DNA of 64,000 bases, taken from Selaginella moellendorffii. Its lineage: Eukaryota; Plantae; Lycopodiophyta. The notes beneath the pieces are model-generated. The model saw nothing but the letters and a program-made list of their open reading frames with translations, searched no databases and was not told the DNA's origin. How positions within the stretch are numbered: the first letter of the stretch is position 1; every line of letters starts with the position of its first letter. The DNA lies in assembly GCF_000143415.4 (NCBI RefSeq), contig NW_003314309.1:766936-830935 (forward strand), given 5' to 3'. Shown here piece after piece: positions 3,017 through 64,000 of this stretch. The translations under genes and the position numbers were made by a program.

Positions 3017-4449
3017 CTCCTTCTCCCCTCTCGATCGACGCAAACTTAGTAGCGACTACCACTTGTGTGAATATAACTCCAATTCTTCTTCGAGCACCTA
3101 CACAGCAAAGACAGTTGCTGGTGTCAGTTCCTTTCCCCTCCCCACGGACGAAGGATGATTCCTCTCACAACTTTGCAGGCAAAAGAGAGCGAGCGTTTTT
3201 AAGTCCCTCCGGAATGAACAAGCACAAAAGAAGGAGAAAAAAAGGAAGAACAAAATAAAACAACTTTAAAGAAGAATTCCAAGTCGCACACACACTTCAT
3301 TCCACAGTGAGTGAGAGTACCTCTTCCGGAAGAAATAAGTGAGAGAGGGAGAAGGAAAAAAAGGGATGCATGGCCAAGAGGTTGGAGTGAACAAGACAAT
3401 GCCACGACTCTCCCGTGAAGGGCCACCGAGGAACAATCAAGAGGGAGGAGACGTGGATAAGAAACTACGAGCAGCTATGGAGGAGCAACAGGGCAGTACA
3501 AGTCTAGAAATCCAAAGCAGAAAAAGCAAGCACGCACCAGCCAGCCAGCCAGCAAAGAAAAACGCAAAGAACAAGAGCACCAAAACAAGCAGCGAGCGTG
3601 CACTAGTACCACAGCGATGGTGTCTTTAGGCAAAGGGAAATCAAAGGTAAAATAAATAGCAAGGCTGAGGATGACAGACCAGCAAAAAGAACTCGCGGGA
3701 AAGACGAGAGAAAACGAGAAATCGGGCGATGAGATCAATCAGAGAGCCGTGCTGACCGCTTGGTGAAAATTGAAACCACTCTCAGAATTCAAGGGTGGTA
3801 GTAAAGAAAAACAATTAAAAAAGAAAAAAGAAGAAGAAGACTACGAGGAAAAAACACCAAAAGCAAAAGCTGTAAAAATCAAGAGACGATTCTTTCGGCT
3901 CTCACTCGCTCAAGCTTTGCGTTGGATTTCCACGCACAGAGACAAGCAATCAAAGCGGTGGAGACAATAGACTTTTCCCTCGCTCATTGTCAGCCCTGTT
4001 GATACTGATGTGACCAAATATCTCTCACGTCTTCTAGCCCCCACTCTTTGAGCAAGCACGCAAAAAAAGAAGGAAAAAAAGAGAAGAAAAAGAGAAACGC
4101 CATGTTCTTCAGTCGCAACTCTCAAAACCCAAGAAAAACAAAACCAAAACCAAACCCATCCGATACCAGGGAGGAGAAGTCTTACCTCTTCAAGGACGGA
4201 CAAATGCCACGGCTGGGCATTTTGCTGTTGGGCAGCCAGTACAGAGTGAAAAAGCTTCGTGTCACTGGAATGGGGGTCCAGCATCGCGCTTGTTCCTTCG
4301 CTTTGTAGCCTCTTTTACCACCACCATGGCCTTCAATCCCGGGAACCCAACACGGATAAGATGAATCGGCCGCGAACCCACATCTCAGATTTGCGAGGAG
4401 GCAGCCTGTGCTTTCGATTCTTCCCTTGACACAGACTAGGGGAGAGGAG

Positions 4450-12296: not shown

Positions 12297-12350
12297 AATA
12301 GCTTCCAGTATATCCATCTTTTAGAAGATTTTAGAATCAAATAATATAAT

Positions 12351-13035
12351 AATTTGTTGTAGTAATGCTTAGTTTGGATAATTATTCCTACTTATCAATC
12401 CAATTGATCAAATAAAGTTTATAATTATAAGCATGTTTGTAATTTATAGATGCAAGATTAATCTTATTGCATATCAACCCTTAGATGGTAGAATAAAATA
12501 GAATATATTAAAAAGTGTTTAATTTTTTGGTTTGCTTAAGCAAACCTATAGGGGGACTGGGATGGTATTGAATATACCTAGAATATATTTGGATATTCTA
12601 GGATATTCTACCATCTAACGGTTGTTATTCATTTAGATTAATTTTGTATTTATAATTTATAAACATGTTTATAATTTATAAACTTTCTTAAACCTTTTCT
12701 AGTATATTCTTTTTAATTCTACCATCTAATGGTTGATATGCAATAAAATTAATCTTGTATATATGAATTACAAACATGCTTATAATTATAAACTTTATTT
12801 GATCAATTGGATTAATAAGTAATAATAACACTAGTATTAAGCAAACCAAGCGTTGCTACATGCAACGCGTAGCAATTTATTGTTTATTTTATAAATTATA
12901 AACATGTTTATAAATTATAAATATAAAATTAATTTAAATGAATAAAAACCATTAAATGGTAAAATATCCTAAAATATTCAAGTATATTTTAGATATATTC
13001 ATTCATCTCAGTCCCCCCTTAAGCAAACCAAAAAT
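12351..13035 (-). mobile_element. Older antisense copy of the same element, split by the inner copy (12351-12520 + 12884-13035)
   Basis: 12401-12515 is the reverse complement of 12694-12819; 12525-12685 is the reverse complement of 12888-13035. Confidence 0.65.
12523..12880 (+). mobile_element. Non-autonomous DINE-1/Helentron-like element (inner copy)
   Basis: 13-bp subterminal IRs ttggtttgcttaa (12527-12539) / ttaagcaaaccaa (12837-12849); 5' palindrome ggtttgcttaagcaaacc; 3' GC stem-loop 12850-12875; T-rich flanks. Confidence 0.6.
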
Positions 13036-13133
13036 ATTGTGTTTGTTAGAATGTTCATTTATCTTTAGAGAATATTCTATTAGTTTCGATCATTTAAACC
13101 CTTACGCGTTTAAACCCTTTAGGGCTTTTTGGG

Positions 13134-35049: not shown

Positions 35050-35620
35050 ACGATGGTAACCAAGGAGTGGAACTTTAACCCTTGGATATGTGGGTCAAGA
35101 GTAGCAGAGTGGAACCCAAGTTCAAGGCCTTTAGCGATTAAACAAAGAGATGGAGCTAAACTCCCAATTATGTAACTAAGGAGTATAAAAAACTAGAGCA
35201 TAGAACAACTCCCGAGTATATAGCCTAATGAGTGAAGGGACAAGAGCACGAAGTGACTCTCAAGCGTATAACCCAAAGAGTGAAAGGATAGAAGTACAGA
35301 GTGACTCCCAAGTGTACAATCCAAGGAGTGAAGGGGTAAGAGTACAAAAAAACATTAAAGTAGTCCTAAAGCTTCTAGCATCCTAGTACTAGGACCAATA
35401 TGTAAAATGGAACTAAATAAAGTTTTGTGTTATTTCATGGCCTAATGCGAGGATATGGATCCTCCAGCTAGTATGGTATGAAGCTTATGCTTAACTAGAA
35501 TACACTTTAAATTGGTTGATTATGCCTAACTTACTTACTATCCCTAATATACATTTAGAATCCCCTATAGCCAGCGCCCCCCCCCCTTCTAGAGGAACTC
35601 ATGCTTTAGGCTTTCACCAC
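35050..35620 (+). mobile_element. Degenerate LTR-like repeat with ~48-bp tandem units (35160-35345)
   Basis: Inverted match to 52180-52680; ends in C-run + atgctttagggctttcacc, like the young LTRs. Confidence 0.55.
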
Positions 35621-37451
35621 AATCCCAGAAGTTAGTTTTTGGGATAATCATGAAAACTTATTAAATAAAGAATGATGCTAAATTACATATTTAGATGTGA
35701 GAACAACATCATTGTATTCAGGACAATCTCTACATTTCATAGATATGCTAAACTAACAAATCTAAACACTTTCCATAAATAGCCAAATGAAACTAACACA
35801 TTAGGGAATGATAGCGAGAGTGTCTTAGTGGACACAGTAAGCTATCCCTTAGCAAATATTAAGGATTAAATTTAATATCATAGGGGTTTTTGTCAAACTA
35901 ATGCAAGATAGAGCAAAAGAAAACTAAAAGCCAGACTGAGTATGCTCAATAAGAAACACATAGGAGTTTTTACTTTAGATAAATGGTTATATATAAGTGG
36001 TTAAATATAGATGCTAAACTCAATTTACTAACACTTAAATAAGGGGGATTGAAAAAGGAACCAACAATATCGATCTTTTGCCGTTGTGACAGTAAAAAAA
36101 GAATGTCTAAAAGAATGAACTAGCCAATAAGTTATTTTCCATACCCATAGTCATATTTGCCACACAAATGGCCATTCCATGGATCATTCCTGAGTTCATA
36201 TTATATCTATCACAATATTCTTCATATAGATATAATTGTTGTCCATTAAAAAAATTTGGGTCTAGGATTTGGTTTTGGCAAGGATGGGGCAAAAGTATCC
36301 TCTTTATACTATGTGGAGAGGAAAGAGAATTAGAATTTTTCACTATTAGAATAATATTATACCTATCTTCACACTTCATCTAGAACTGCCAAATGGAGGG
36401 GCCTCTACTCTAAGTATGAAGCACAATTATGGCTTTAGAAATGGTGCTACAACAATCACACACCACTCTAAAGACCTCTTTTGGATTGCCCTTTTCCACC
36501 ACTTTGACTAGCAATGCACTTAAAAGTATTCTAGTTAATAAGGAGTATGATGATTACTTCACAATGGAGGAAGATCTAGATGTCTAAGGGCAAAAGTATC
36601 CTTTCTGTTGCATTTTGTTGAATATGTAATTGACTTACTTAATGTCCTCAATTGGTGGAGGAAGTGTTATGACTTGCAAAACAACCGGTGAGATTTGCCT
36701 AAATTAGCAAAGGAACTACAATCACTTGTAACACAATAGAAGGCTAAAGACGTGCAACAACCTAGGTGTTGGAATTGGAGGTGGTGTATTTAGGAATGCC
36801 TAAACCATCATCGGGTTTGGCTTATATATATTCAATATAATGTAATTATCTGTCCGCATGAAGGTTGCAATTATGGCAGTAGAATACAATAAGACAGAAA
36901 CAAAAACACTATAAGTTTTATTTGTATTATTGCACTTACCAACATCAAATTATGTCCAAGTGACTTGATGTAATTGGTACTAGAAGCACATATGTGCCAC
37001 AAACTCAAATGCAACATGTTGTCCCTTGCTGATGTGATTGCCATTTGAATTCATAACTAGAAAAAAATACTATAAGAATTAATATTTAAGAAAGAATTTT
37101 TTTTTTTATGGATAACTTTACTTATAATTGGTTCTTACTTTAAAGCTTTCTACATGCTTGCCTCTTATAGATACTTAGATTCCTTTGTTGGGTTGTGCTA
37201 AAATGCTCTTTCTTATTACATTTTCACAGCAAAACACACTCATAATAATTTGTAGCTAATTAAAAAGTATCATAGCTCTAGCAATATTAAAATACTAAAT
37301 TATCTCTCAACATAAAAATGATTAATGAATTTCATAGATGGGATAAAAGAACTTATAAGAGAATATAATATTGAAACAATATCTTTAAATGTCACTTTAC
37401 AATTTTATGCTTTATTTATATACAACCTAAATTATTAGTTTTAACATATTT

Positions 37452-40400
37452 TATGAGTGCATGGAATATGGAAATGGAATACAAAAATGTGCATATTAAT
37501 TAGCCTAAAAACCTTAGCTTATATACAAAAGCAAATGGTCCAAATTGAAACCAATCCAATGGCTACCAAAATCCCACTATACTAATATTAATATACGGCA
37601 TCAAAGATATACACCTGAACCTCACATCATCCCCCCTTGGAACGATGGAAGATTATCAGAGTCCTCTTGTGGATAGGCCAGGATCTGAAGGAATATCAAG
37701 AGGAGGCATAAGTGGATCTGTAAGTGGCATTAGTTGTTTCTGATCCTTTTGTATGAAGTGTTTTAGTTGTTGCGCACAATTTTTAGAGGATTGGCCTAAT
37801 GAATATCATGCTAAACCTTATAAACTTATTGTCTAACTTACCACAACACCTAATATAGTCTTTTCCACTCAGCAAGGAACCTCTTAGATAAACCACATAC
37901 GATAAAATTGGGAAAATAAACTAAAACTAAATTATCCATTTTGTACTTTGCACGTGGACGATGATGGGAGTTGTAGCACTGTTATTGTCCCACTTATATG
38001 CAGCCTATATGTTTGGTAAACTCTGCTTAGACAAGTGAAAAAATGCTCATCAAATACTAATCTCACAACTTAGTTTTAGCACCTCATGACAATTGTGAAG
38101 GTAAACCCAATTCTGTTAGTAATGTTGGATCATGACCATATAGGAGTGTTTATGGTGAAACACCAATAAAACTTGCACCCTTATGACATATACATACTGT
38201 AGAGACAGTAAATAACCATCATAATTCGAATACTGAAAGTTCATATACTTTGCGATCATCTCTTTAAAGGTTTGAACAAGCTATTCCACCAAACTGTCTG
38301 ATTATAGATGATAAACATTTATGAAAGTGTGGCATATCCTTAATTGAGATGTTAGAATGTGAAATGCTTTAACCATAAATATGGGACTATTATCCAAGAG
38401 AACCCACTTTGGACAGGAATGTTGGAACACCACTCAATTGATGAGGAAGTATCCAAAAATAGTTGTAGACATGCTAGTAAGAGCACTGAATTCCACCCAA
38501 CAAGTAAAGTAATCAAAAGCAATATGACATACTCATTGTTAGTAGTCGATTATGGAAAATGCCCCATTAAATCAATTGCCACTAACTCAAATAGATGGGA
38601 AACTACAGTTAACTCCAACCATCCTTCTTTAGCACGACAGGGAGTATTACGAGCTTGGCACCAAATGCAACTATGCACATACTAGATAACATCACATCGC
38701 ATTTCTGGCTAATATTGTAGCGCATGTGATCATGGGATGAGATTTGGATATACTGTCACCGTGGATCCTTGGAACCTTGGGGGATAAATGGGGATAAAAT
38801 AGCCACTAAGGGCTCTCTCATCAAGCAATTGCCCCTTTTCCAGTTGGCTTAAGGGGAGAGAGATAAGGTGCGGTACAGTTGGTATCAGAGCAAATGGCAT
38901 GGGTTCGATTCCCATTGATTAGTGGCTACTTAAAGTATAATATACCCTTGAGCAAGGTATATTCCTACCCCTAAATTTGAAATTATATGTATTGGGCATC
39001 CATACGTACATCCTTCCTCTTGTGTGGAGTATCCACAGACGAAAGTATCCACTGTGAGACTGCGGTATGGTAAATTTGAAATTATATGTATTGGGCATCC
39101 ATACGTACATCCTTCCTCTTGTGTGGAGTATCCACAGACGAAAGTATTCACTGTGGGACTGCGGTATGGGTGGATGACTAGTTGCCTCACATGGAATAGC
39201 TAGTCTACACAATGGAAGGATTGGTAGATTAAGTGCGGAAATGGAAGTGCTGGTTCCCTTTGGCTCAGTAGGGGTTGTTAGTCAATAGTCAATGAGGACA
39301 TTGACATCTCTGAAGGGGGGGTGAGTGCTGTGGGACTGCGGTACGGGTGGATGACTAGTTGCCTCACATGGAAAATGGAAGTGCTGACATGGAAAATGGA
39401 GGTGCTAGTCTACACAATGGAAGGATTGGTAGATTAAGTGCGGAAATGGAAGTGCTGGTTCCCTTTGGCTCAGTAGGGGTTGTTAGTCAATAGTCAATGA
39501 GGACATTGACATCTCTGAAGGGGGGGTGAGTGCTGTGGGACTGCGGTACGGGTGGATGACTAGTTGCCTCACATGGAAAATGGAAGTGCTGACATGGAAA
39601 ATGGAGGTGCTGGTTCCCCTTGGCATTGACATCTCTGAAAGGGGGGTGAGTGCTGTGGGACTGCGGTACGGGTGGATGACTAGTTGCCTCACATGGAAAA
39701 TGGAGGTGCTGACATGGAAAATGGAGGTGCTGGTTCCCCTTGGCTCAGTAGGGGTTGTTAGTCAATAGTCAATGAGGACATTGACATCTCTAAAGGGGGG
39801 GCGAGTGGAACCTTGGGCCACTAAAATAGCCACTAAGGGAAATCCCCTTTTCCAGTTGGATTAAGGGGAGAGAGATAAGGTGCGCTACAAATATAAAGTT
39901 TTGCATAGCTTCTCGTCACACAACAATGTCATATGCCCGCCTAAAACATGAGTATGAAGAAAGCATGAAATAAAGATCGAAGACACCACCAACCATAAAT
40001 GATCATTAGGATCCGTCTTCACAAAATAAAGAAGATTGTTCTTAAGATGAATATTGAGAATGTAAATGCTGAAATGGCAAGTCATTAGCAAGTGATGTAA
40101 GATTCTCATACCTATTGCAAAGACTTCAAATCCACAACTCAATCTTTTGAGTTTTATGAACCTCATCAAGAGAAGGTAAATCTTGTTTTGCACTTTGTGA
40201 ACACTAAACATCAAGTATAACAACTGCTAATGGCACAAAATCTTTGTCTAAAAAATCCATAAATACTAAAATAATAGGTTTGTAAGAAATATGAAAAGAG
40301 AGGGAAGAAGGAAGAGGAGCTCAAAAAAGGGCATCAGCATTAGCTATAAAACTCCCTGGGTGATGAACAATATCAAAATCATATAATGGAAGTTTCAAAG

Positions 40401-48808: not shown

Positions 48809-51399
48809 GCCTGTTAGTGGCGAAGCATTCCTTCCACCGCCTAGAAAGAAAGATTGCCTCCACCCACGGGCTATCTATCTCACGAATGGAGCCTCGATTC
48901 TTCCTTGCCGATAGCGACAGGGAAACAATTATGGCTGGATCGTCCTAAATATCGCCGCAAAGCCCCCATATGTGTGATCACTTGTGATGAGAGATCGTGG
49001 ATTGATCCGCCACTACCTAAGAGAGATTGGGAGATGGATCTTGGAAATGCGCGGCAGGAAGAAATTTTAAGACGCAGGGCCGCCTGTGGATCCGATGCTC
49101 GACACCCCAGCATCGATCGAGGATACCAAGCGCCCTACATCTACATTTTTATGGATTACCCGCATCGATCATCGCCCAGGAGTGAGAGGAATGAAGCGAC
49201 AGCCTGGGGCATGAGAGAACTCATCGCCATAGCCGGGGGTATATAACACGGAGATGGAATATTCCTTAGCAAAGCGGCGATTAGGGTTGATGGTTTAAGC
49301 TTGGGCCACAAGCCTTTAACAAAATTGTTTTCTGGCAAAAAGGTGAAAAGAATTTCTTGATACAGACCTGCATAAGCTGAGTGACCGCCACATCAAACAA
49401 CAATTACAGCAGGTAATGCCAACGATGAGCAAGGCCGAAGGAAAAAAGTCCAGCTCGAACCGTTTGAGGTAACAAAGGTCTTCGTCCAAAGCCTGGGATC
49501 CAGAGTAGGCAGGCGCCAGTATTGTCTCCTTCCCGGCCCAGAGATGGTTTTTCGAGCAAGCCCTCTTTGATCGCGGTAAGAGGCCACAATAGAAAAAGGA
49601 AAGGAAAACAGAATCTAGGAGTTTGCCTTCAAGGATGCAGCAAGATTGCATAGGCATGACGAGCAACGATTTAAGTTTCACATATGACTTTGACATCCCA
49701 CATTCTAAAAGAACATGATCTTGATTGATCAGAATCTGACCACCATAAAGATAAAGAAAACATGTTTAGATTTGGTTAAATTTATTATAAAATCAAAAAA
49801 TATTTTGATGCATTTAGCAGCAATGCTTGGTTTGCTTTAAAATCAAGAATCTAATCCACCATCACAACTATATCTAACTGAGATTTATTTGGGATATTAT
49901 ATCTCATTATAATTATAAGATTAGAGAAAGTTTATGAAAGCTTAGTATAAGAAAGTCACAACAATTAGAATAGAAAATATTCTAGAATATAGTTTGGTGT
50001 TAGATTAGTTTTGAGTTTGGTAAAAAAAAAAGTAATATAAGTTTGTCTATATTGCAACTAAAATTGGTAATATTAGGTGTTATAAATTTTTATTAGTGGG
50101 GTATGTTGCATTTTGTTAAATAGAGTTGATATTTGATACTCACATAAACCTTTAAAGTAATAATGTAGATTTGCTTGTGGTGTTATTCAATTAATTATCA
50201 GGTTATTGTGATTTTTATATCATATCCATGTGAATGTGAGTAATATATTTACAAAGTTGTTTAATCAAACAATGATCAATCCCAAAGTGGTTGATAGTGA
50301 TCTTGCATGTTGTAACATTATAGTAACTTTGACTAAATTTTTGTTGGTGATCCATTTTATGCTAAGCTTGTGATGTTACTTTGGTTCTTTTTACTTATTA
50401 AATGTTAGAAAGGTTATAACATTCAATTGCTATAGCTTATTGATGAGTCTATTAGCATTTAAAGTAAATTATTAGATGGTGAAAATGTATACTTGAGGCA
50501 TTGTTATTTGGGGTGACGAGGATAACTTACTTAAAATCCTTTTGTGTTCTATCTTAAACTTATTTATTGATAATTTGGTCTTTAAGATATTATTGCCTCT
50601 AACTTTGATATTGTCCATCTATTAATCTTTTGGTTTAGGCCAGTATAGGTAGACTAGCTTCAACACTTCATATACATGCTAAAATCTTTAATCATGGGAT
50701 AGCTATTATCGATTAATCATATAACCCACCTTTTTCTTAATGTTTCTTATTCCATTAAAAAGTTGTGACCATGTAAACAACTCTAATTACTTGTTTATAA
50801 TAGTCTATCTAAACTTTATTGACAAGTTTGGTTTGTTTACTTAGGAGAGTTAAGGCCTTTAGCTTCTCTCTATATGTCATTTGTAGATAAGGGTATACCA
50901 TCTTTTGTAAACCGAATGACACTTAGATTAATAAGGATGACTAACTTTGTTGGTCATTTTCTTATCGGTGATGGCCAAAAGGTGTCTAAGTGGTAGCATA
51001 TTTGCATTAAATAAAGAGGTTGCCCTCTAACTTATTTAAGTTGGTGCATTTTTCACAAAATATGAATACCATGAATTTTTTTTTTAGTTATTTCCTTGAC
51101 AATGATCTAGATTAGAGTATACACCGATTGTGTGGACATCAATATTCCTTAAAGAGGGGAGAGTGTTGTGAATATGATTACAGGTATTGAAAGTTATTTA
51201 TCAGCAAGCCCTTTCATATATTCTTTCCTTACTACTATGACACCAAAAAATTGGTATTGCTAAACTAGGCATTTAGATTGTACTTAGATTGGATGAGCAT
51301 AAGGACAAAATTCCTATGTACTATTAGTTAAACATATTTAGCCCAGTAAAGAATTTCTGTTTCATTGTGTCTTGCATTAGTTAATAACAAAAACCCCAC

Positions 51400-52150
51400 A
51401 ATATTGAGCTTGGTCTCTTAATATTGATAGCTTAATATGTCTGCCAAGACACTCTCACTATCATTTCCCTATATATTGGTTCTATTTGGTCCCATTAACT
51501 ATTTATAAACATCCTATTAAACTCTTGTACTATCTAGAACGTCCTAAACAACCAATCCTTTGCAAAACTAATCCCATACTAAGCCCCTTTGTTTTGGAAA
51601 ATTATTGCGTGATATCCACTTCACAAATCTTAAAGTCTTATGTAACTCTTAGCTCCTTAGCTGCTTTTGCTATTTATTTCCATGTCTCCTTGTGCTACTA
51701 TCTTTAGTGTTCCACTCTCTGAGCATTTGTGGGTGTCCTCTACTTGGAATTGCTGCCCTACTGGTAGTCTATTTGTTGTTGCAAGGCATAACATATTCTT
51801 GGACTTCTTTTGGATTGGTGACTTCCAAAACACTTCCTTCTCAAACTCCTTATTAACCATTAACCCATTCTATACCTCTTTTACTTTGTATATGAAAAAC
51901 CATTTGCCCCTCATTGCCACACTGTCGAGTCCCAATCTAGATCCTTGATGAGTTTGTTGTGCCACCAAACCAACCGTCCCTTGCCCTCTAGCCAACATTC
52001 CGATTCTATGACATTTGTCTAGGCTGCTAATTTTTTCAAGTGTCTAAATTTGCTAGTGAGGCATATCTATAGAATATAGAGATTGTCTTGAATATGATAG
52101 TGTTGTTCTTGTGTCCAGATTCACAGTCTAACACTATTCCATATTTAGTA
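51400..52150 (-). mobile_element. Degenerate L1-like LINE relic (zf-RVT region)
   Basis: FWKSPIQKKSKNMLCLATTNRLPVG resembles the zf-RVT consensus (IWKxxxPxKxKxFxWxxxxNRLPT); boundaries approximate. Confidence 0.45.
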
Positions 52151-52179
52151 AAAAAATTTAATTGTCCCAAAGACTAAAG

Positions 52180-52700
52180 GTGAAAGCATAAAGCATGTGT
52201 TGCTAGAGGGGGGGATGTATAGTAAGGATAGTGGGTAGGTCAAGTGGAGCATAATTTAGCTCCAATTTATATGCCTATCCTTGTTTTGCGTCCATCTTAG
52301 GTTTAACCTTAAATTCCATATCATATTAACTAATGAAGTACTATTAGACCACCAATATGCTAAAATAATGCCAAACTCTATTTGGTTTTATTTTGCATGC
52401 TAATCCTAACATTAAGATCCTACATGCTCTAAGATTGTTTTTATATTATTCTATGCTCCTATCTTTTTGCTTTTTGGGTTGTACATTTGGGAGTTATTCT
52501 ATGCTTTTGTCCCTTCACTTTTTGGGTTATACATTTGGGAATTGTCCTATGCTTGTGGTTTCTTACACTCCTTGGCTATATGCTCAGAAGTTAAGCTTTA
52601 TACTTTCATTCAATGGCTCAAGACCTTGAAACTTGAGTTCCACTCTATTGCCCTTATCAACCGGGTTTTACTTATTTATTCTCTATAAAACCATAAAGTG
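52180..52700 (-). mobile_element. Degenerate LTR-like repeat, second copy of the 35.0-35.6 kb family
   Basis: Reverse-complement match including the 48-bp units (52450-52560) and the ggtgaaagc..G-run end. Confidence 0.55.
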
Positions 52701-52879
52701 TAGTTTTGACATGCTCGTTGTTATCTATGTGGTCAAAGTCCTTGATAGGGAATTTGAGGGACTCAAGGAGGTACACAATCTGTCACTCATATATAAGGAA
52801 CCAACTCGCCGAGGTGTCGTAGGCTAAAGGAACCCTGAAAGCATGACCAAAATGACAAAGAGTTCATCGGATGGGACCA

Positions 52880-53140
52880 AGTCAAAGATCGAGTCCAAGA
52901 CCGACTCTGAGACCGAGTTCGAGATAGAGTCCGGAATCGAGTCCGAGGCCGACTCGGGGACCGAGTTCGAGACCGAGTTCGAGACGGAGTCCGAGATCCC
53001 AAATCGGGTCCGAGACCGAGTCCGAGGTCGAGTCCGAGGTCAGGTCTGAGATCGGGTCCGAGATCGAGTCCGAGATCGAGTCCGAGACCGAATCCGAAGT
53101 CGGATCCGAAATCGAGTCCGAGATCGAGCTAGAGACTAAG
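52880..53140 (+). repeat. CpG-rich hexamer array (ccgagt/tcgaga/ccgaga) in the LTR, followed by G18 at 53193-53210
   Basis: Present in all four LTR copies with variable copy number. Confidence 0.9.
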
Positions 53141-53319
53141 TCCAAATACTAATATGGGTCAAGGGGTGAAAGCCCAAAGCGTGCGTCTCCCAGGGGGGGG
53201 GGGGGGGGGGTTCCAAAAGTATAGTAGGGATAGTGAGGTCCAGGAACCAGTTTTGAAAGGACTCTCCAGTGGGGCTTCCAAACCGACTTGAGGTTGAGAC
53301 TGGGACTGAGGGGCCTTGG

Positions 53320-53373
53320 TGTAAGCTCCTGGGCTGGGTGACCTCCCGGGAAGTCCAAACTCAGGAGCTTACA
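53320..53373 (+). mobile_element. 54-bp TG..CA insertion carrying a 5S rRNA fragment (Cassandra-like mini solo LTR)
   Basis: TSD CTTGG (53315-19 / 53374-78); 12-bp TIR tgtaagctcctg/caggagcttaca; tgggtgacctcccgggaagtcc matches plant 5S rRNA; absent from sister LTRs at ~54.76 and ~58.0 kb. Confidence 0.8.
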
Positions 53374-54635
53374 CTTGGGTGGGAGTGAGCATAGACTTGG
53401 TTGGTGCCGGAGGGGCCATCCAAGGAAGTTCTCAAGAGCAGCTCCCACTCCCGAAAGGGAAACCGATTGTAGTGCTCCTGGCTCATGTGGAGTGGTGCCC
53501 CACTTGAGTACCATGCGGCTCATTGGTCCTCGCCCTCCCTAGGGGCTTGGGCCTTCCTTCGGGATGGAAGTGGGGGAGTAAAGGTACCCATACCGGGCTG
53601 CTAGGCCACGGTGTTTCGCCCTGGCATCCCGAAGCAAGCGTTGCACTCAAGACTTGGGATTTAGAGGGTCCAATGATCAAGTCTTGTGGTACCAAAGGAT
53701 GTTAGGAACCTGGAAGCTTGGTGTGCTTGGCTGCTTGTGTTTACGGGGAGTGTAGCCGAACCTTAAGTCCAGTTTAACCCGGGGAGGGGGATTGGGAGTG
53801 ATTTGGGAATTCGTGGATGGATGGCTAACACTTTGTTGCTTGTGTAGTGAGTAGCTGAAACCAAGTAGGAGCTGGTACCATAGGCGAGAACCTTAGCAAG
53901 GGAACTTAGCAAAAGCCAAGACAGTGTTGGATAAATAGACGAGGTAAGCTGGCAAATTGGAAAGGAAAAATTTGTGGCTTACAATTTGGTATCGGAGCCT
54001 TTTCCTCAGTTCTAGCGAAGGATAGAGGCGGATTGCTGGGAGATGGCAAAGGCGGGGCGTAAACGAACCAAGGCGAAGACGGAACCTCCGCTAGAGCTGG
54101 AGCCTCTGGTCGAACAAGAGGCTATGGATGAGGAATCCTTTCATGAGGATCATATAAGCCACAAATTTTTCCTTTCCAATTTGCTAGCTTACCTCGTCTA
54201 TCCGTCTAACACCGCCTTGGCCTTTGCTAAGTTCCCTTGCCAAGGTTCTCGCCTATGGTACCAGCTCCTACTTGGTCTCAACTACTCACTGCACGAGCAA
54301 CGGAGTGTTAGCCATCCATCCACGGATTCCCAAATCACTCCCAATCCCCCTCCCCAGGCTAGACTGGACTTAAGGTTCGGCTACACTCCCCACAAGCACA
54401 AGCAACCAAGCGCACCATGCTTCCAGGTTCCTAACATCCCTTGGTACCACAAGACTTGATCATGGGACCCTCTAAATCCCAAGTCTTGAGTGCAACACTT
54501 GCTTCGGGACGCCGGGGCGAAACACCGTAGCCTAGCGGCCCGGTATGGGTACCTCTACCCCCGCACTTCCATCCCGAAGGAAGGCCCAAGCCCCTAGGAA
54601 GGGCGAGGACCAATGAGCCGCATGGTACTCAAGTG

Positions 54636-54735
54636 NNNNNNNNNNNNNNNNNNNNNNNNNNNNNNNNNNNNNNNNNNNNNNNNNNNNNNNNNNNNNNNNN
54701 NNNNNNNNNNNNNNNNNNNNNNNNNNNNNNNNNNN
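54636..54735. other. Assembly gap (100 N)
   Basis: Run of n. Confidence 1.
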
Positions 54736-55977
54736 CCCCAGTCAAGTCCATGCTCACTCCCACCCAAGGCCCCTTGGTCCCAGTCTCAACCTCCAGTCAA
54801 TTTGGAAGCACCACTATAGAGTTCCTTCAAGACTACTTCCTAAACCTCGCTATCCCTACTATGCTTTTGGAACCCCCTGCAGCCCCCCCCCCCCCCCCCT
54901 GGGAGACGCACGCTTTGGGCTTTCACCCCTTGACCCATATTAGTACCTTGGACTAAACCTTGGACTTGGTCTTGGACCCGATTTCGGATCTCGGACTCCG
55001 TCTCGAACTCGGTCTCGAACTCGGTCCTCGAGTCGGTCTCGGACTCGATTCCGGACTCTATCTCGAACTCAGTCCTAGAGTCGGTCTTGGACTCGATCTT
55101 CGACTTGATCCCATCCGATGAACTCTTTGTCATTTTGGTCATGCTTTCGGGGTTCCTTTAGCCTACGACACCTCAGCGAGTTGGTTCCTTACAACTCCAC
55201 CACCCATAGAAGAAGTTCGATGCCCACATCGAACGTCTCTTTTTATCCTACGACTTGTTGACCATGTCTCCGGGGGCATCTCCCCACTTAGTAGTGTGCC
55301 TAAGTTAGCCTCCCTGGCCAAGAGCCCATGATAACGGAATATAGGTGTCCCTATACTCTTCACCTCACCACGCCCTAGTATAGGGTCGAGACTTGAACTC
55401 AGCCTTGCTTTACTAGGGGGTCGGGACTCAAACCCAACCTCCGTAGAATACATCTACAGATTCGACATCCCCGCAGGGAGTCGGGCGTAGCTCCCTACGC
55501 CTAGTCGACCTAGCTAACCCATGCTAATTAGCTTACCTTCGGCGCGCCTTCGGGTCCCAACATATGCCATTGCTCAACTTCTGAAATTGATACTTTTAAT
55601 TGAACTTTGCATAAGTACATAGAGTTCTGCCATGCAGAAATTCCTCCACTAGATCTCGCGCGTTCGCTAGGTTCTCCTCCGGTTCCCATGTTGCTTCGCA
55701 GTGTGGAAATCCTTTCCACTTCACATGGAACTCTCTCACCTCGCGTCCTTGTCGCTTGCTCTTGCGCGCATTGAGGATGGCCTCGACTTCGTATTCCTCC
55801 TCCCCTTGGATAACCTCAGGTAAAGGTCTTACTTGGTCCTTGCGAAGCGGATCCTCAAAATACGGCTTGAGTAAGTTCACGTGGAACACGGGATGCATCT
55901 TCCTCATCTCTCGAGGAAGTCGGAGACGGTAAGCCACTTTACCGATTCGAGCCTCAATCTCGTAAGGCCCGGCGAAC

Positions 55978-56029
55978 CTGCTTAAGGAACTCAAGATCAA
56001 TTCATTTACAAGAATACATGCATTTTTAC
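55978..56029 (-). other. Candidate 52-nt spliceosomal intron in the integrase GPY/F module (homologue starts at 62768 in element 1)
   Basis: AG|gtaaaa...ttccttaagcag|G; removal restores KLTQRFAGPYEIEARIGKVAYRLRLP. Confidence 0.8.
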
Positions 56030-58541
56030 CTTTGGGTCAACTTCCGGCTGATCCCACTTGGTAGATGTCGCAAACGACTCTCTACCAAAGTTGCTCGTGT
56101 AATGAGTAACTTTGAGTTAGGGACTAGATCACATACCTCAATTTGGACTTCACTCGACTTGATGGCTATATTGGCTCTGGCCTTTTTCGGGTAGGGACAT
56201 TCCCTCGAAAAGTGTCCCGTTTCACCGTAGTTGTAGCATACGTTGTTTCCCACGCTGCTATATGACTTGACCTTCTTATCCATGGGTTTGTCTCTTTTCG
56301 CTTGACTGCCCCACGTACTCGCTCGTTGGCCACCAGATTTGCCTTTCTGGAACCCCGAGGACTCATTTTTAGAGAAACTCTTCTTGAATTTCCCCCTGCT
56401 ATACATTCCTCTTGGTTTGGCCCCTTTGCTAAATGTGGATCCCGACCCCGTCGTGTTCCCCTTTCGCAGGTTATCGTTGAAATGCACCTTGATGGCCGCA
56501 TCCAACGCTTCCTTGTAGTTGGTCGGGTTCTAGCGCATCACCTCACCGCGAGCCCAGGTTTGCAAACCTGATATAAAGGCATGGAACGCATCCATATCCC
56601 CCATGTCCGTGACAAGTATCCTCTTTGCCATGAACCCATTCACATATTCCTGGATGGTTCCAGTCTGCTTCAGCCTACTCAGCTCATCTCTCAGATGCAA
56701 AGTGGCATTCGGAGGAACGTATGTTGCGTAGATCCTTGCCTTCATCATGTCTCAGGTGGCCACCGGTCCTTCGTTGGCCTCCGTTGTTCTCCACCAAGAC
56801 TTGGCATTATCTGCCAAGTATGGTTTTGCACATGGGACATTCTCCGAGCTCGGTAACCGCAACGCTCGGAAGTAATCCTCCATATCGTAAAACCAATCCT
56901 CCACAACCTTATAGTCGTTCACTCCCTTGAACACCGGTGGGGGCTTTGGTTTGTACTTGGGAACTGCCTGAGGGACTGATTCCACTTCGGTCTGTTCGAC
57001 CTTGTCTGGTTTTGCCTCAGTCCCTGCCGAAGGGTCTGCACCTTCTGCGCTGCCAGCATCTGCAGTCTTTCGCTTTTTCTTTCGCTTCTCATCACGCTTT
57101 AGCTTGTGTACGAGAGTCTCCAGCAGGGCATTGGTCGGTGCCAACTGTCCTTCTAGCACATCCAATCGAGCCTTGGATGACCGAACCTCACCACCGGACT
57201 CCTGTTTGGAAGTTTCCTCACTGGAGTCCTCCTCATGCAAAGATTCCTCATCCATAGCCTCTTGTTCGACCGGAAGCTCCAACTCTGGTGGAGGTTCCGT
57301 CTTTGCCTGGGTTCGCCCTACCCTTGCCATCTCCCAGCAATCCGCCTCTATCCTTCGCTAGAACTGAGGAAAAGGCTCTGATACCAAATTGTAAGCCACA
57401 AATTTTTCCTTTCCAATTTGCCAGCTTACCTCGTCTATCCGTCCAACACCGCCTTGGCCTTTGCTAAGTTCCCTTGCCAAGGTTCTTGCTTATGGTACCA
57501 GCTCCTACTTGGTCTCAGCTACTCACTGCACGAGCAACGGAGTGTTAGCCATCCATCCACGGATTCCCAAATCACTCCCAATCCCCCTCCCCGGGTTAGA
57601 CTGGACTTAAGGTTCGGCTACACTCCCCGCAAGCATAAGCAGCCAAGCACACCAAGCTTCCAGGTTCCTAACATCCCTTGGTACCACAAGACTTGATCAT
57701 GGGACCCTCTAAATCCCAAGTCTTGAGTGCAACACTTGCTTCGGGATGCCGGGGCGAAACACCGTGGCCTAGCGGCCCGGTATGGGTACCTCTACCCCCC
57801 CACTTCCATCCCGAAGGAAGGCCCAAGCCCCTAGGGAGGGCGAGGATCAATGAGCCGCATGGTACTCAAGTGGGGCACCACTCCACATGAGCCGGGAGCA
57901 CCGCAATCGGTTTACCTTTCGGGAGTGGGAGCTGCTCTTGAGCACTTCCTTGGATGGCCCCTCCGGCACCAGTCAAGTCCATGCTCACTCCCACCCAAGG
58001 CCCCTTGGTCCCAGTCTCAACCTCAAGTCGGTTTGGAAGCCCAACTGGAGAGTCCCTTCAAAACTGGTTCCTGGACCTCACTATCCCTACTATACTTTTG
58101 GAACCCCCTGCAGCCCCCCCCCCCCCTCTGGGAGACGCACGCTTTGGGCTTTCACCCCTTGACCCGTATTAGTATTTGGACTTAGTCTCTGGCTCGATCT
58201 CGGACCCGATTTCGGATCCGACTTCGGATTCGGTCTCGGACTCGATCTCGGACTCGATCTCGGACCCGATCTCGGACCCGACCTCGAACTCGACCTCGGA
58301 CTCGGTCTCGGACCCGGTTTCGGATCTCGGACTCCGTCTCGAACTTGGTCTCGAACTCGGACTCGAACTCGGTCCCCGAGTCGGTCTCGGACTCGATTCC
58401 GGACTCTATCTCGAACTCGGTCCTAGAGTCGGTCTTGGATTCGATTTTCGACTTGGTCCCATCCAATGAACTCTTTGTCATTTTGGTCATGCTTTCGGGG
58501 TTCGTTTAGCCTACGACACCTTGGTGAGTTGGTTCCTTACA

Positions 58542-61500
58542 GATGACTCCAGTGAGGAAACTTCCAAATAGGAGTTTGGTGGCGAGGTTCGGTCGTCCAA
58601 GCCTCGATTGGATGTTCTAGAAGGACAGTTGGCACAGACCAATGCCCTGCTAGAGACTCTCGTATGCAAACTAAAGCGTGACGAGAAGCGGAAGAAAAAG
58701 CGAAAGACTGCGGATGCTGGCAGCGTAGAAGGTGCGGACCCTTTGGTAGGGACTTAGGCAGAACCAAACAAGGTCAAACAGACCGAAGTAGAATCAGTCC
58801 CTCAGGCAGTTCCCAAGTACAAACAAAAGCCCCCACCAGTCTTCAAGGGAGTGAATGACTATAAGGTGGTGGAGGATTGGTTTTACGATATGGAGGACTA
58901 CTTCCGAGCGTTGCGATTACCGAGCTTGGAGAAGGTCCCATGTGCAAAACCATACTTGGCAGATAATGCCATGTCTTGGTGGAGGACAACGGAGGCCAAC
59001 GAAGGACCGGTGGCGACTTGGGACATGATGAAGGCGAGGATCCGTGCAACATACGTTCCTCCGAATGCCACTCTGCATCTAAGAGATGAGCTGAGTAGGC
59101 TGAAGCAGACTGGAACCATCCAGGAGTATGTGAATGGGTTCATGGCAAAGAGGATACTTGTCACGGACATGGGGGATATGGATGTGTTCCATGCCTTCAT
59201 ATCAGGTTTGCAAACCTGGGCTCGCGGTGAAGTGATGCGCTGGAACCCGACCAACTATAAGGAAGCATTGGATGCAGGTATCAAGGTGCATTTCAACGAT
59301 AACCTGCGAAAAGGGAACGCGACGGGGTCGGGGTCCACGTTTCATAAAGGGGCCAAACCGAGGGGAACATATAGCAAGGGGAAATTCAAGAAGAGTTTCT
59401 CTAAGAATGAGTCCTCGGGGTTCCGGAAAGGCAAATCCGGTGGCCAGCGAGCAAGTACGTAGGGGAGTCAAGCAAAAAGAGACAAACCCACGGATAAAAA
59501 GGTCAAGTCGTTTAGCAGCGTGGGAAACAATGTATGCTACAACTGCGGTGAAGCGGGACACTTTTTGAAGGAATGTCCCTACCCGAAGAAAGCCAGAGCC
59601 AATATCGCCATTAAATCGAGTGAAGTCCAAAATGAGGTATGTGATCTAGTCCCTAGCTCAAAGCTACTTATTACACGAGCAACTTTGGTAGAGAGTCGTT
59701 TGCGACATCTACTAGCCCTCCGAGGGAAGCTCGGAGGTAGCTTTGTTAAGATCCTTATTGACATTGGTGCTTCGGATAATTTTGTGGCTGCAGACATAGT
59801 CCGGCAAGCCAGACTAACAGTGTAGCGGCTGGGCAAACCAAGGACTATAGAGTTTGTTCAAGGTAGCCAAAGCACCGATGAGGTACTTCGACAAGCAAGA
59901 GTCGAAGTAGGGACTTGGAAAGTAGACATGGATTTCACCGTGTTGGACATGGCGGGATTTGACGTGATCTTCGGGATGGATTGGTTCAATCGGTTCGTGG
60001 TAGCCCTGCATGGACAAGGTAGGAACCTTGTGGTACTAGCGAATGCCCAAGGAAGAAGATCCAGGGTGGAGGCCCAGGATCTAAAGGTAGGGCAATGCAA
60101 GGCCAAAGATTCGTGCCTAAACCTGGTGTCCACGAGAGGACAACTCACTAAAGGGACAAAGGCTGCATTTTTGTGCTTACTCTCGGTGAGAAGTGATAAA
60201 AAGACAGGAACGGAAGAAGTACCTTTAGTGATCCAGCAGGTGTTGGACCAATTCCAGGATACCATGCCAGAGGAGCTACCGGCGGGGTTGCCCCCCGCAC
60301 GACCGATAGAACATAAGATTGAGCTGGTCAAGGGTGCTGAGGCAATGGTTCGTCCACCCTATCGTTTGAACGAAAAAGAACTCGTGAAGCTCAAGCGCCA
60401 ACTAGAGGAGTTGGTGGACAAAGGGTATGTTAGGTTGAGCAAATCGCCGTATGAGGCGCCGGTCCTATTTGTGAAAAAGAAAGATGGATCTATGCGCATG
60501 TGCATAGACTACCGGTTGCTCAACAAATATACAAAGAAGAACAAGTACCCTTTGCCAAGGATTGAGGACCTGTTTGATAGGTTGGGAAAAGCAAAATACT
60601 TCTCAAGGATTGACCTAAGGTCAGGATACTACCAGATTAGGGTAGCAGAGGAAGATGTCGAGAAGACAACTTGTCGAACGAGGTATGGGAGCTTCGAGTT
60701 TTTGGTGATGCCCTTCGGGCTATGCAATGCGCCGGCAACGTTTTCGGCGTTAATGAACCATATCTTTGTACCCTATCTGGATCACTTTGTGGTCGTTTAT
60801 ATTGACGACATCCTAATCTATAGCGAAACGCTAGAAGAGCATGCCAAACATTTGACGAAGGTGTTTGAGAAACTAAGGGAACACCAGCTATATGCTAAAG
60901 AGAGCAAATGTAACTTTGCTCAGCAAGAGGTAAAGTTTCTCGGGCATGTGGTGGGCAAGGATGGGCTCAAGGTGGACCCTGAGAAGGTCCAAGCGATCCA
61001 GGATTGGGAGCGACCATCGAATGTACACGAGTTAAGGGCATTCTTGGGGCTATGCAACTACTACCGAAAGTTTATTAGACACTATTCGAGAGTAGCCCTG
61101 CCCTTAACAGACCAAACGGGAAAAGGGAAGATGGTATGGACAGCGGAATGCGAGGCGGCATTTGTCCACCTCAAAGGGAAATTGAGGAAAGCTCCGGTGT
61201 TGGCATTACCAGATTTTGGTAAGGACTTTGAGGTAGAAATGGATGCTTTGGACTTTGCGTTGGGCGCAGTTTTGAAGCAGGATAACCATCCAGTAGCATT
61301 CTTCTCGAAAAAGTTGGACAAGGCTCAACGGAAGTGGCCTGCCCATGAGAAGGAATTGTTTGTGGTGGTCAAGGCGCTCAAGGAGTGGAGACACTACCTT
61401 GGGAGACACTTCAAGGTTTATACGGACAATGTGGCAACAAAACACTTTTTGTCACAACCTGACCTAAGGGGGAAACAGGGTCGGTGGGCCAATGCTTTGG

Positions 61501-63128
61501 CCGAGTTTGATTGTGAAATTCTGTACAAGCCTGGGAAGAGCAACATCGTGGCGGATGCGCTAAGTCGAAAAGCAAGCTTGAAGTTGGCGATATCCAGCGC
61601 AACAGCAATATTTTGGGATGATGTGTGGACAACATATGAGAACGATGGTCTAGCACAAGAAGTGTTGCTGCAGAATCTGGAGGCACGGGAAGCTCACCAA
61701 AGGGGTGAGCTACCAACAGAAGAGAAAACGGGCTATGTGGAACGCAATGGACTCATCTATTACAAGCAAACGAGGGTGTATGTCCCAGAAGGGGAACTAA
61801 GGAAGGTAGCCTTAGAGGAGTGTCATGATGGACCTCTTGCGAAACACGGCGGAGTGCCCAAGACGATGGGCTTACTCAAGAGGAAGTATCACTGGCCAAA
61901 TATGGCTAAGGACGTCCAAGACTATGTAAAGACATGTCCAACATATGGTCAAAGATGTGACTAAGGCTACTGGGGGCTTGTTGCAAAATCCCAATTCCAG
62001 ATCGTCCGTGGAAATGTCTTACGATGGACTTCATCACGGGACTACCCCCAAGCGAGGGGTTCGATGCGATATTTGTGGTGGTGGATCGATTTTCGAAGAT
62101 GGCACATTTCATACCCACCACAACGGAAGTGGATGCGGAAGGTGTGGCGAAGCTGTTCTTTGAGCAAGTGGTTCAACTGCGGGGAAGGCCAGAAGAGATT
62201 ATCTTAGATCGAGATAAAATCTTCACCAGTAGGTTCTGGAGAACCCTCCTGGAACAGTATCGCACCAAGTTGAAATTTAGCATAGCCTATCACCCACAGA
62301 CAGGTATGGGGTATTAAGTCAAGTTGATGGCACTAACACTTCTTGACAGACGGACAAACGGAAAGGGTGAATAGGCAGCTAGAGGATTATTTGTGATGCT
62401 ATGTCTCAGGAGACCAGACCGATTGGGTAAGTCATTTGGGACTTGTGGAAATGTGTTATAACAACTCACCACATTCAAGCATCGGGGTGAGTCCATGGGA
62501 AGTCATCAATGAGCGAGCTATTGAAGGTCCTATGGAACTCGGCGTGGCCGAGTATCATGGAGAGTTACCCGCAGTGGAGGCATTCACAGCGGAAAGACTC
62601 AACATTTGGAATCTAGTGAGGGATTCCTTGGAACGGGCTCAACAAAGGCAAACCAAGTACGCGAACCAGAAGCGTCAGGACGTAGAGTTCCAAGCTGGGG
62701 AGAAGGTGTGGCTAAACACCAAGAACCTCAGGCTACCAAGTGGGATCAGCCAGAAGTTGACCCAAAGGTAAAAATGCATGTATTCTTGTAAATGAATCGG
62801 TCTTGGGTTCGCGGGGCCTTATGAGATTGAGGCTCGAATCGGTAAAGTGGCTTACCGTCTCCGACTTCCTCGAGAGATGGGGAAGATGCACCCCGTGTTC
62901 CACGTGAACTTACTCAAGCCGTATTTTGAGGATCTGCTTCGCAAGGACCAAGTAAGGCCTTTACTTGAGGTTATCCAAGGGGAAGAGGAATACGAAGTCG
63001 AGGCCATCCTTAATGCACGCAAGAGCAAGCGACAAGGACGCGAGGTGAGAGAGTTCCATGTGAAGTGGAAAGGATTTCCACACTGCGAAGCAACATGGGA
63101 ACCGGAGGTGAACCTAGCGAACGCGTGA
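58542..63128 (+). pseudogene. Disrupted gag-pol of element 1
   Basis: Stops at 58755, 59460, 59823, 62394 and 63126; frameshifts near 61945 and 61990; RT-RNase H open 59928-61964. Confidence 0.9.
62304..62349 (+). other. Candidate 46-nt spliceosomal intron in the integrase core
   Basis: AG|gtatgg...ctaac...ttcttgacag|AC; removal restores YHPQTDGQTERVNRQLEDYL in frame. Confidence 0.8.
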
Positions 63129-64000
63129 GATCTAGTGGAGGAATTTCTGCAAGGCAGAACTCTATGTACTTATGCAAAGTTCAATTAAAAGTATCAATTG
63201 GTGAAGTTGAGCAAATATGTTAGGACCCAAAGGCACGCCAAGCGTAGGGAGCTACGCCCGACTCCCTGCGGGGATGTCGAATCCGTAGACGTATTCTATG
63301 GAGGTTGGGTTCAAGTCCCAACCCCCTAGTAAAGCAAGGTTGGGTTCAAGTCCCAACCCCATACTAGGGCGTGGTGAGGTGAGGAGTATAGGGACACTTA
63401 TATTCCGTTGTCATGGGCTCTTGGCCGGGGAGGCTAACTTAGGCACACCGCTAAGTGGGGGGATGCCCCCGGAGACATGGTCAACAAGTCGTAGGATCAA
63501 AAGAGAGACGTTTGATGTGGGCATCGAACTTCTTCTATGGGTGGTGGAGTTGTAAGGAACCAACTCGCCGAGGTGTCGTAGGCTAAAGGAACCCCGAAAG
63601 CATGACCAAAATGACAAAGAGTTCATCGGATGGGACCAAGTTGAAGATCGAGTCCAAGACCGACTCTGAGACCGAGTTCGAGATAGAGTCCGGATTCGAG
63701 TCTGAGGCCGACTCGAGGACCGAGTTCGAGACCGAGTTCGAGACGGAGTTTGAGACCGAGTTCGAGACAGAGTCTGAGATCCGAAATCGGATCCGAGACC
63801 GAGTCCGAGGTCGAGTCTGAGGTCGGGTTCGAGATCGGGTCCGAGATCGAGTCCGAGATCGAGTCCGAGACCGAATCCGAAGTCGGATCTGAAATCGAGT
63901 CCGAGATCGAGCTAGAGACTAAGTCCACATACTAATACGGGTCAAGGGGTGAAAGCCCAAAGCGTGCGTCTCCCAGTGGTGGGGGGGGGGGGGGGGGGGC

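Follow-up and report, generated by a model that had tools for sequence, protein, structure and literature searches.

A 46-nt segment in the integrase core of a Ty3/gypsy retrotransposon from Selaginella moellendorffii is almost certainly a family-wide spliceosomal intron, and we judge it likely that the element copies itself from unspliced RNA and makes its integrase from a spliced message. The preliminary description of the window (the whole 64-kb stretch of DNA that was analysed) had proposed this one intron, and our data support an extension to three, here called A, B (the 46-nt segment) and C, with A on weaker evidence. Introns B and C carry stops, shift the reading frame, are skipped precisely in assembled contigs and are retained in genomic copies.

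Two nested copies of one family

The window has a compact land-plant genome setting with auxin-receptor-like, F-box, PPR and acyltransferase genes. The gene at 523-3055 (-), which we take from its translation to be a TIR1/AFB-like F-box LRR gene, has short tandem repeats in one intron. Other repeats comprise AT-rich nested inverted repeats at 12350-13040 (arms of 114-170 nt, MITE- or foldback-like) and tandem repeats of 99, 205 and 120 nt at 38970-39810 (93-99% identity), which are flanked by 46-nt direct repeats (38832 and 39844). Two diverged inverted matches (68-73%) lie in AT-rich DNA at 35100-35910 and 51370-52650; the inverted match near 52200 resembles the poly-G end of the LTR of the retrotransposon family and may be an older relative. 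From 52792 to its end, the window consists of two nested copies of one Ty3/gypsy family, elements 1 and 2, arranged as follows.

52792-53983 (+), 5′ LTR of element 1, with a poly-G tract
about 53985-53998 (+), tRNA-Met primer site of element 1, directly after the 5′ LTR
54043-54152 (+), gag start of element 1, ending where element 2 is inserted
54153-58541 (-), element 2, of the same family, inserted in the gag of element 1 in the opposite orientation
57390-58541 and 54153-55193 (-), LTRs of element 2, identical at 887/937 positions (94.7%)
58547-62317 (+), remaining gag-pol of element 1: Gag, CCHC, protease, RT, RNase H, zinc finger and integrase core
63539-64000 (+), polypurine tract and 3′ LTR of element 1, the LTR starting at 63551 and running off the window

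The Pfam domains of element 1 run in the order Gag, CCHC, protease, RT, RNase H, integrase and chromodomain, which is the Gag-PR-RT-RH-INT-chromodomain order of a Ty3/gypsy chromodomain LTR retrotransposon. Also present are direct LTRs, a primer site and a polypurine tract, and a 5-bp target duplication surrounds element 2 (GATCA at 54148-54152 and GATGA at 58542-58546), the only copy on which it can be scored, as element 1 extends past the window end. The two LTRs of element 1 are identical at 403/421 positions (95.7%, aligned part only). An inverted-LTR or Ginger-like reading was rejected, because the inverted matches are a nested same-family copy that lies in gag within this 5-bp duplication; such opposite-orientation nesting (54148-58546) mimics inverted LTRs. 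The LTRs contain a 12-bp tandem array beside the poly-G tract that varies in copy number (52875-53190, 58166-58460 and 63634-63970), and the 3′ LTR of element 2 contains a 100-N assembly gap (54636-54735).

Element 1, which bears the 46-nt segment, is dead: its gag-pol is broken by stops and by two small deletions near 61944-61987, and further in-frame stops lie in its middle exon (62394-62396) and last exon (63126). In element 2, an internal deletion that begins within intron A and reaches the middle exon removed the middle of pol together with the intron B site, so that, as the preliminary description had observed, one copy of the segment is visible in the window. The joint of this 3-kb deletion (window 56055-56065) lies at a shared CTAC (59709-59712 and 62733-62736 of element 1), a case of microhomology.

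An intron before the catalytic glutamate

The integrase core of element 1 is split as follows.

61988-62303 (+), integrase core before intron B, carrying catalytic Asp residues one and two (MDF and DRD); Pfam rve
62304-62349 (+), intron B, 46 nt, phase 1, between HPQT and the catalytic Glu of the integrase
62350-62767 (+), middle exon, with the catalytic Glu (GQTE) and the rest of the integrase core; the published 'ORF2'

Intron B starts with GTATGG and finishes with TTGACAG, and it contains a CTAAC branch site 17 nt before the acceptor and a short pyrimidine run; it thus has the GT donor, branch site, pyrimidine run and YAG acceptor of a U2-type intron. A TAA lies in the upstream frame at 62315-62317, where the gag-pol frame of element 1 terminates, and all three frames across the segment contain a stop. 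All of the features that the preliminary description had listed for the segment are therefore in place. The segment splits an Asp codon in phase 1, leaving HPQT and a G on its left and AC followed by GQTER, in a different frame, on its right.

The canonical catalytic spacing of integrases is D(35)E. Removal of the segment rebuilds HPQT-D-GQTER, as had been claimed, and separates the second catalytic Asp from the Glu by 35 residues, a spacing that is obtained only without the segment. The upstream core aligns to residues 1162-1267 of Ty3 Gag-Pol (7q5b; E 4.8e-17), ending at HPQT, and in tblastn the alignments of 12/12 full-length intronless relatives stop at 62302 and restart downstream in another frame. 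The further claim that removal rejoins the downstream frame held for the middle exon but not for the GPY/F motif and chromodomain, which are set apart by a second, 52-nt intron.

The splice signals of intron B, taken alone, are modest. When the two strands of the window are scanned together, 434 of the 127,908 46-mers have GT..AG, and 4, intron B among them, have GTR..YAG plus CTRAY. Intron B rises above chance because it lies exactly at the homology break and because contigs skip precisely 46 nt. GACAG, which the preliminary description had noted, is indeed found at both ends (62299-62303 and 62345-62349). An intron and a 5-bp target duplication had been posed there as alternatives, a choice that does not hold, since the two are not exclusive and the repeat may mark the gain of the intron.

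The family and its published consensus

The window family is likely SM1-Galahad, a Ty3/gypsy chromovirus described from Selaginella moellendorffii (Novikov et al. 2012, PMC3350952), with the match made by frame lengths and features rather than by the consensus sequence. According to the available text of that paper, the SM1-Galahad consensus represents hundreds of copies at 95% similarity and has a 3885-bp frame without a chromodomain, behind which lie two short frames, the third frame being 309 bp long and encoding the chromodomain; the text reports that no intact copy was found, and that the sister family SM2-Galahad comprises hundreds of copies and has a single, unbroken frame (PMC3350952). 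In the window, the frame that opens at the gag ATG and closes at the intron B TAA measures 3878 nt, and 7 further bases, which other copies carry at two places, bring it to 3885. Therefore, the published main frame terminates at the stop of intron B. The chromodomain frame of the window is 309 bp long (62877-63185), equal to the published 'ORF3', and the second frame, published as 316 bp, counts 318 from its first ATG in the window. LTRs over 1 kb with poly-G and a tRNA-Met primer site are shared as well. In the paper, as far as its text was available, the three broken frames were treated as separate ORFs and no introns were seen; 'intron' and 'splic' have 0 occurrences in the available main text and supplement text of PMC3350952.

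Splicing and genomic presence of intron B

Splicing was assessed with contigs from four of six runs guessed to be RNA (X15, X16, X18 and X19), which were aligned to the window. These contigs give neither strand nor level, and because they are mostly 90-95% like the window, they derive from other copies. A 46-nt GT..AG skip with the joint 62298>62345 occurs in 3/4 of the runs, from two studies (run type guessed RNA), with junction sides of 82 nt in X15, 255 nt in X16 and a short 25 nt in X19; the junction that the preliminary description had called for is thus present with exactly the expected length. X18 retains intron B and X19 has both forms (one contig retaining it), while the bin depth of 6.15 in X16 equals 9.36 x 88/134 and leaves no room for the retained form among the aligned contigs. 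The raw RNA runs X21-X23 gave 12, 2 and 0 reads (about 12% of each run), too few for a joint to be listed.

A total of 55,202 contigs from run X1, whose type is guessed to be genomic, aligned to the window, and the summed depth inside intron B was 335,464. The segment is thus present in the genomic DNA of other copies. One extra base inside it (after 62323) was found in 16 + 19 of the X1 contigs, and 47-nt forms are common among copies. The 46-nt skip is not among the 15 best-supported DNA joints (depth 180-305) of the 101 in X1; as the comparison covers these 15 joints, rare intron-less DNA copies may exist.

The preliminary description had allowed that the segment might be private to one copy, with GACAG as the mark of an insertion. 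We considered a private insertion with a 5-bp duplication that killed the copy, as well as a recoding site (frameshift or readthrough). The GACAG repeat and the abundance of chance GT..AG 46-mers are compatible with such readings, but the segment lies in many genomic contigs and the published consensus frame stops at its TAA, the exact skip recurs in contigs of two studies, and a recoding site would tolerate neither the one-base length variation between copies nor stops in all three frames. The genomic contigs and the exact 46-nt skips refute these readings, to which we assign a negligible probability. Therefore, we are all but certain that the segment is a real intron, and we hold with equal assurance that it is family-wide.

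Introns C and A

Two further introns were located in the family, with the following features.

55978-56029 (-), intact intron C of element 2, 52 nt (a length not divisible by 3), GT..AG
62768-62806 (+), remnant of intron C in element 1, 39 nt, 13 nt having been lost with most of the acceptor
62807-63188 (+), last exon, with the GPY/F motif, SH3-like domain and chromodomain; Pfam SH3_Tf2-1, Chromo and Integrase_p58_C
59637-59793 (+), intron A, 157 nt, GT..AG, without a stop in the Gag-Pol frame and containing the protease DxGAS site

Alignment of element 1 with element 2 places intron C in both window copies, where it splits KLTQR from FAGPY just before the GPY/F motif, with a TAA right at its donor (62768) and AGGT at both of its ends. 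The joint 62766>62806 was found in X15 and X16, i.e., in 2/4 runs (type guessed RNA), and a single 1083-nt contig of X16 (record 12) bears both the B and the C junctions. A retained acceptor of intron C appears as loose ends in X18, and the acceptor is intact in 19 genomic contigs. Since introns B and C contain stops, unspliced RNA cannot encode an active integrase, and since DNA copies keep both introns, these must have been present in the RNA from which the genomic copies were made.

After removal of intron A, Gag is followed by a single residue and then a stop. In X16 and X18 (run type guessed RNA), contigs stop at 59636 and start at 59792, giving four breakpoints, and a 28-nt loose end on one X18 contig equals the upstream exon at 24/28 bases (by eye); no intron A joint is listed in the putative-RNA runs. 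Alternative splicing of intron A, which would end the frame right after Gag, is thus moderately shown. A nearer acceptor at 59691 (55 nt) had been considered from the sequence, and the contigs indicate 59793.

The skipping contigs could instead stem from intron-less DNA copies, produced when spliced RNA was reverse transcribed, in runs that are really DNA or contain DNA, in which case the genome would hold a mixture of copies and packaging would not discriminate. The type of runs X15-X19 is guessed, the comparison of DNA joints covers the 15 best of 101, and, according to the available text of a 2025 review (PMC12786077), introns are expected to disappear when an element passes through RNA. 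However, no skip appears among the best-supported X1 joints despite the depth inside intron B, both frame breaks stand in the published SM1-Galahad consensus as given in the available text (PMC3350952), and X18 shows the Gag-only junction, which would be lethal to a DNA copy. We regard this explanation as improbable, and even if it were true, the segment would still be an intron.

Relatives

No intron was found at site B in any of 80 related metagenome-contig loci (49-59% identity) when all 80 were tested for reading on: 79/80 read straight through DGQTE and the 80th carries a 2-nt frameshift. The exact DNA pattern across the intron B donor had 0 matches in metagenome contigs. At site C, 34/80 loci had both hits, 32/34 of them within -10 to +1 nt of uninterrupted spacing, and the two outliers are a partial hit and a mis-paired hit. 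Among 240 homologous proteins, a type of set that is biased toward open frames, 183/196 motif sites continue as DG[QL]xE, and the remaining 13 are variants or model ends. The middle exon has 3741 relatives at E<=0.001, and no protein of the family itself or of close relatives, spliced or not, was found, with best identities of 46% for the middle exon among the 150 matches listed and of 48-54% over PR-RT-RH among the matches listed. From these sequence comparisons, introns B and C look lineage-specific.

Proposed mechanism

Overall, we propose a putative mechanism in which the family, probably self-sufficient, keeps separate RNA pools. Unspliced RNA would be the packaged genome and, if translated, would yield Gag-PR-RT-RH and an integrase cut before its catalytic Glu. 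RNA that keeps A and has lost B and C would encode the whole Gag-Pol, including integrase and chromodomain, and RNA without A would supply Gag in excess. Packaging or reverse transcription would have to favour the RNA that retains B and C, because the introns would otherwise be lost in one cycle. As to origin, the GACAG repeat at B and the AGGT ends of C are compatible with an origin of the introns in small insertions, each duplicating a target that contains AG; such a duplication would make splicing seamless, so GACAG may record the gain of the intron.

Alternatively, the intron-bearing family may be a passenger that obtains integrase in trans from an intron-less helper, either SM2-Galahad or an unseen intron-less SM1, with splicing incidental to insertions that happened to carry splice sites. 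The lack of an intact SM1-Galahad in the published account and the one frame of the abundant SM2-Galahad (PMC3350952, available text) fit such an arrangement, the GACAG repeat resembles an insertion footprint, and BARE2 is described in the available text of PMC3735527 as parasitizing its sister family. However, it would require that each of two independent insertions be spliced out with single-base precision and that conserved motifs be restored in both cases. Moreover, the exons after intron B hold 32-40% identity to distant integrases, much like the upstream gag-pol (39-41%), and a single frame for Gag, PR, RT and RH is preserved in the family, along with an apparent Gag-making splice. We therefore consider a passenger unlikely and favour a self-sufficient family with separate RNA pools.

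A stronger version, which we put forward only tentatively and think somewhat less probable than not, is that the element is a self-sufficient LTR retrotransposon that cannot make integrase from its genomic RNA and that uses its three introns as a switchboard. A separate RNA molecule would then be needed every time as the source of integrase, and spliced RNA would have to be kept out of the particle almost perfectly. Splicing of A would give Gag, splicing of B and C would give integrase with the chromodomain, and the absence of splicing would give the packaged genome; splicing of B alone might give an integrase without the chromodomain and possibly a change in target choice. If this were true, introns B and C would be a natural, family-wide reporter of packaged RNA.

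Significance

An intron in an LTR retrotransposon is normally lost in one round of copying, and such loss is the classic proof of retrotransposition (PMC12786077, available text). Two obligatory integrase introns that persist in a family of hundreds of copies would imply strict sorting of RNA between translation and packaging, which has been directly shown in few elements. As introns B and C are shorter than 55 nt and have distinct junctions, sequencing of particle RNA or of extrachromosomal cDNA would allow this sorting to be quantified. The introns also explain an anomaly of SM1-Galahad that, to judge from the available text of PMC3350952, has been in print since 2012, namely three separate frames and no intact copy. 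Pipelines that call elements 'defective' on the basis of broken frames can miss families that are spliced and competent.

Comparison with known systems

Searches of openly accessible full texts turned up no account of introns within the integrase core of an LTR element, and PMC2864245, PMC12130899, 10.1101/2022.06.16.496473, PMC12477816 and PMC5014426 offered nothing pertinent in their available text. Among the texts searched, two name Galahad together with Selaginella. Introns do occur in fungal DIRS/Ngaro elements and in Ginger1. Ginger DNA transposons have gypsy-like integrases and move as DNA with inverted repeats (PMC6839031, available text), whereas the window element has direct LTRs, a primer site, a polypurine tract, RT and a 5-bp target duplication; a Ginger-type assignment was rejected, as RT is present and the inverted matches belong to the nested copy. 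Penelope-like elements also keep introns after retrotransposition (PMC8557442, available text), but they have neither LTRs nor a DDE integrase. In foamy viruses, Pol made from spliced RNA must likewise reach particles that carry the unspliced genome (PMC7828637, available text); however, that splicing removes gag to yield a separate Pol and is not known to cut small introns within the integrase.

Plant LTR elements are generally without introns, with Ogre and EVADE named as exceptions in the accessible part of the 2025 review (PMC12786077). In EVADE (Ty1/copia), as with intron A, splicing removes the protease and creates a stop right after Gag, and the same Arabidopsis study, in its available text, did not find conserved Gag-making splicing of this type in Ty3/gypsy elements (PMC5580714). 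BARE1 has a comparable Gag splicing, and BARE packages an unspliced pool and translates others, the unspliced RNA of BARE1 avoiding both splicing and decay by means of a separate promoter and an uncapped pool (PMC3735527, available text). The unspliced RNA of EVADE and BARE1, so far as these texts describe it, encodes the whole Pol, whereas that of the window family cannot encode an active integrase. Ogre of pea and Medicago (Ty3/gypsy, Tat lineage) keeps a stop-bearing intron in its genomic copies and splices it from a subset of transcripts to make the whole polyprotein, according to the available text of PMC6317226 and PMC12786077. In contrast, the window family is a chromovirus with two introns of 46-52 nt inside the integrase, one of them right before the catalytic Glu; an Ogre-type intron was rejected, because the introns lie in the integrase and Gag to RT is one frame. 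The window family therefore works like Ogre plus EVADE, yet it is neither.
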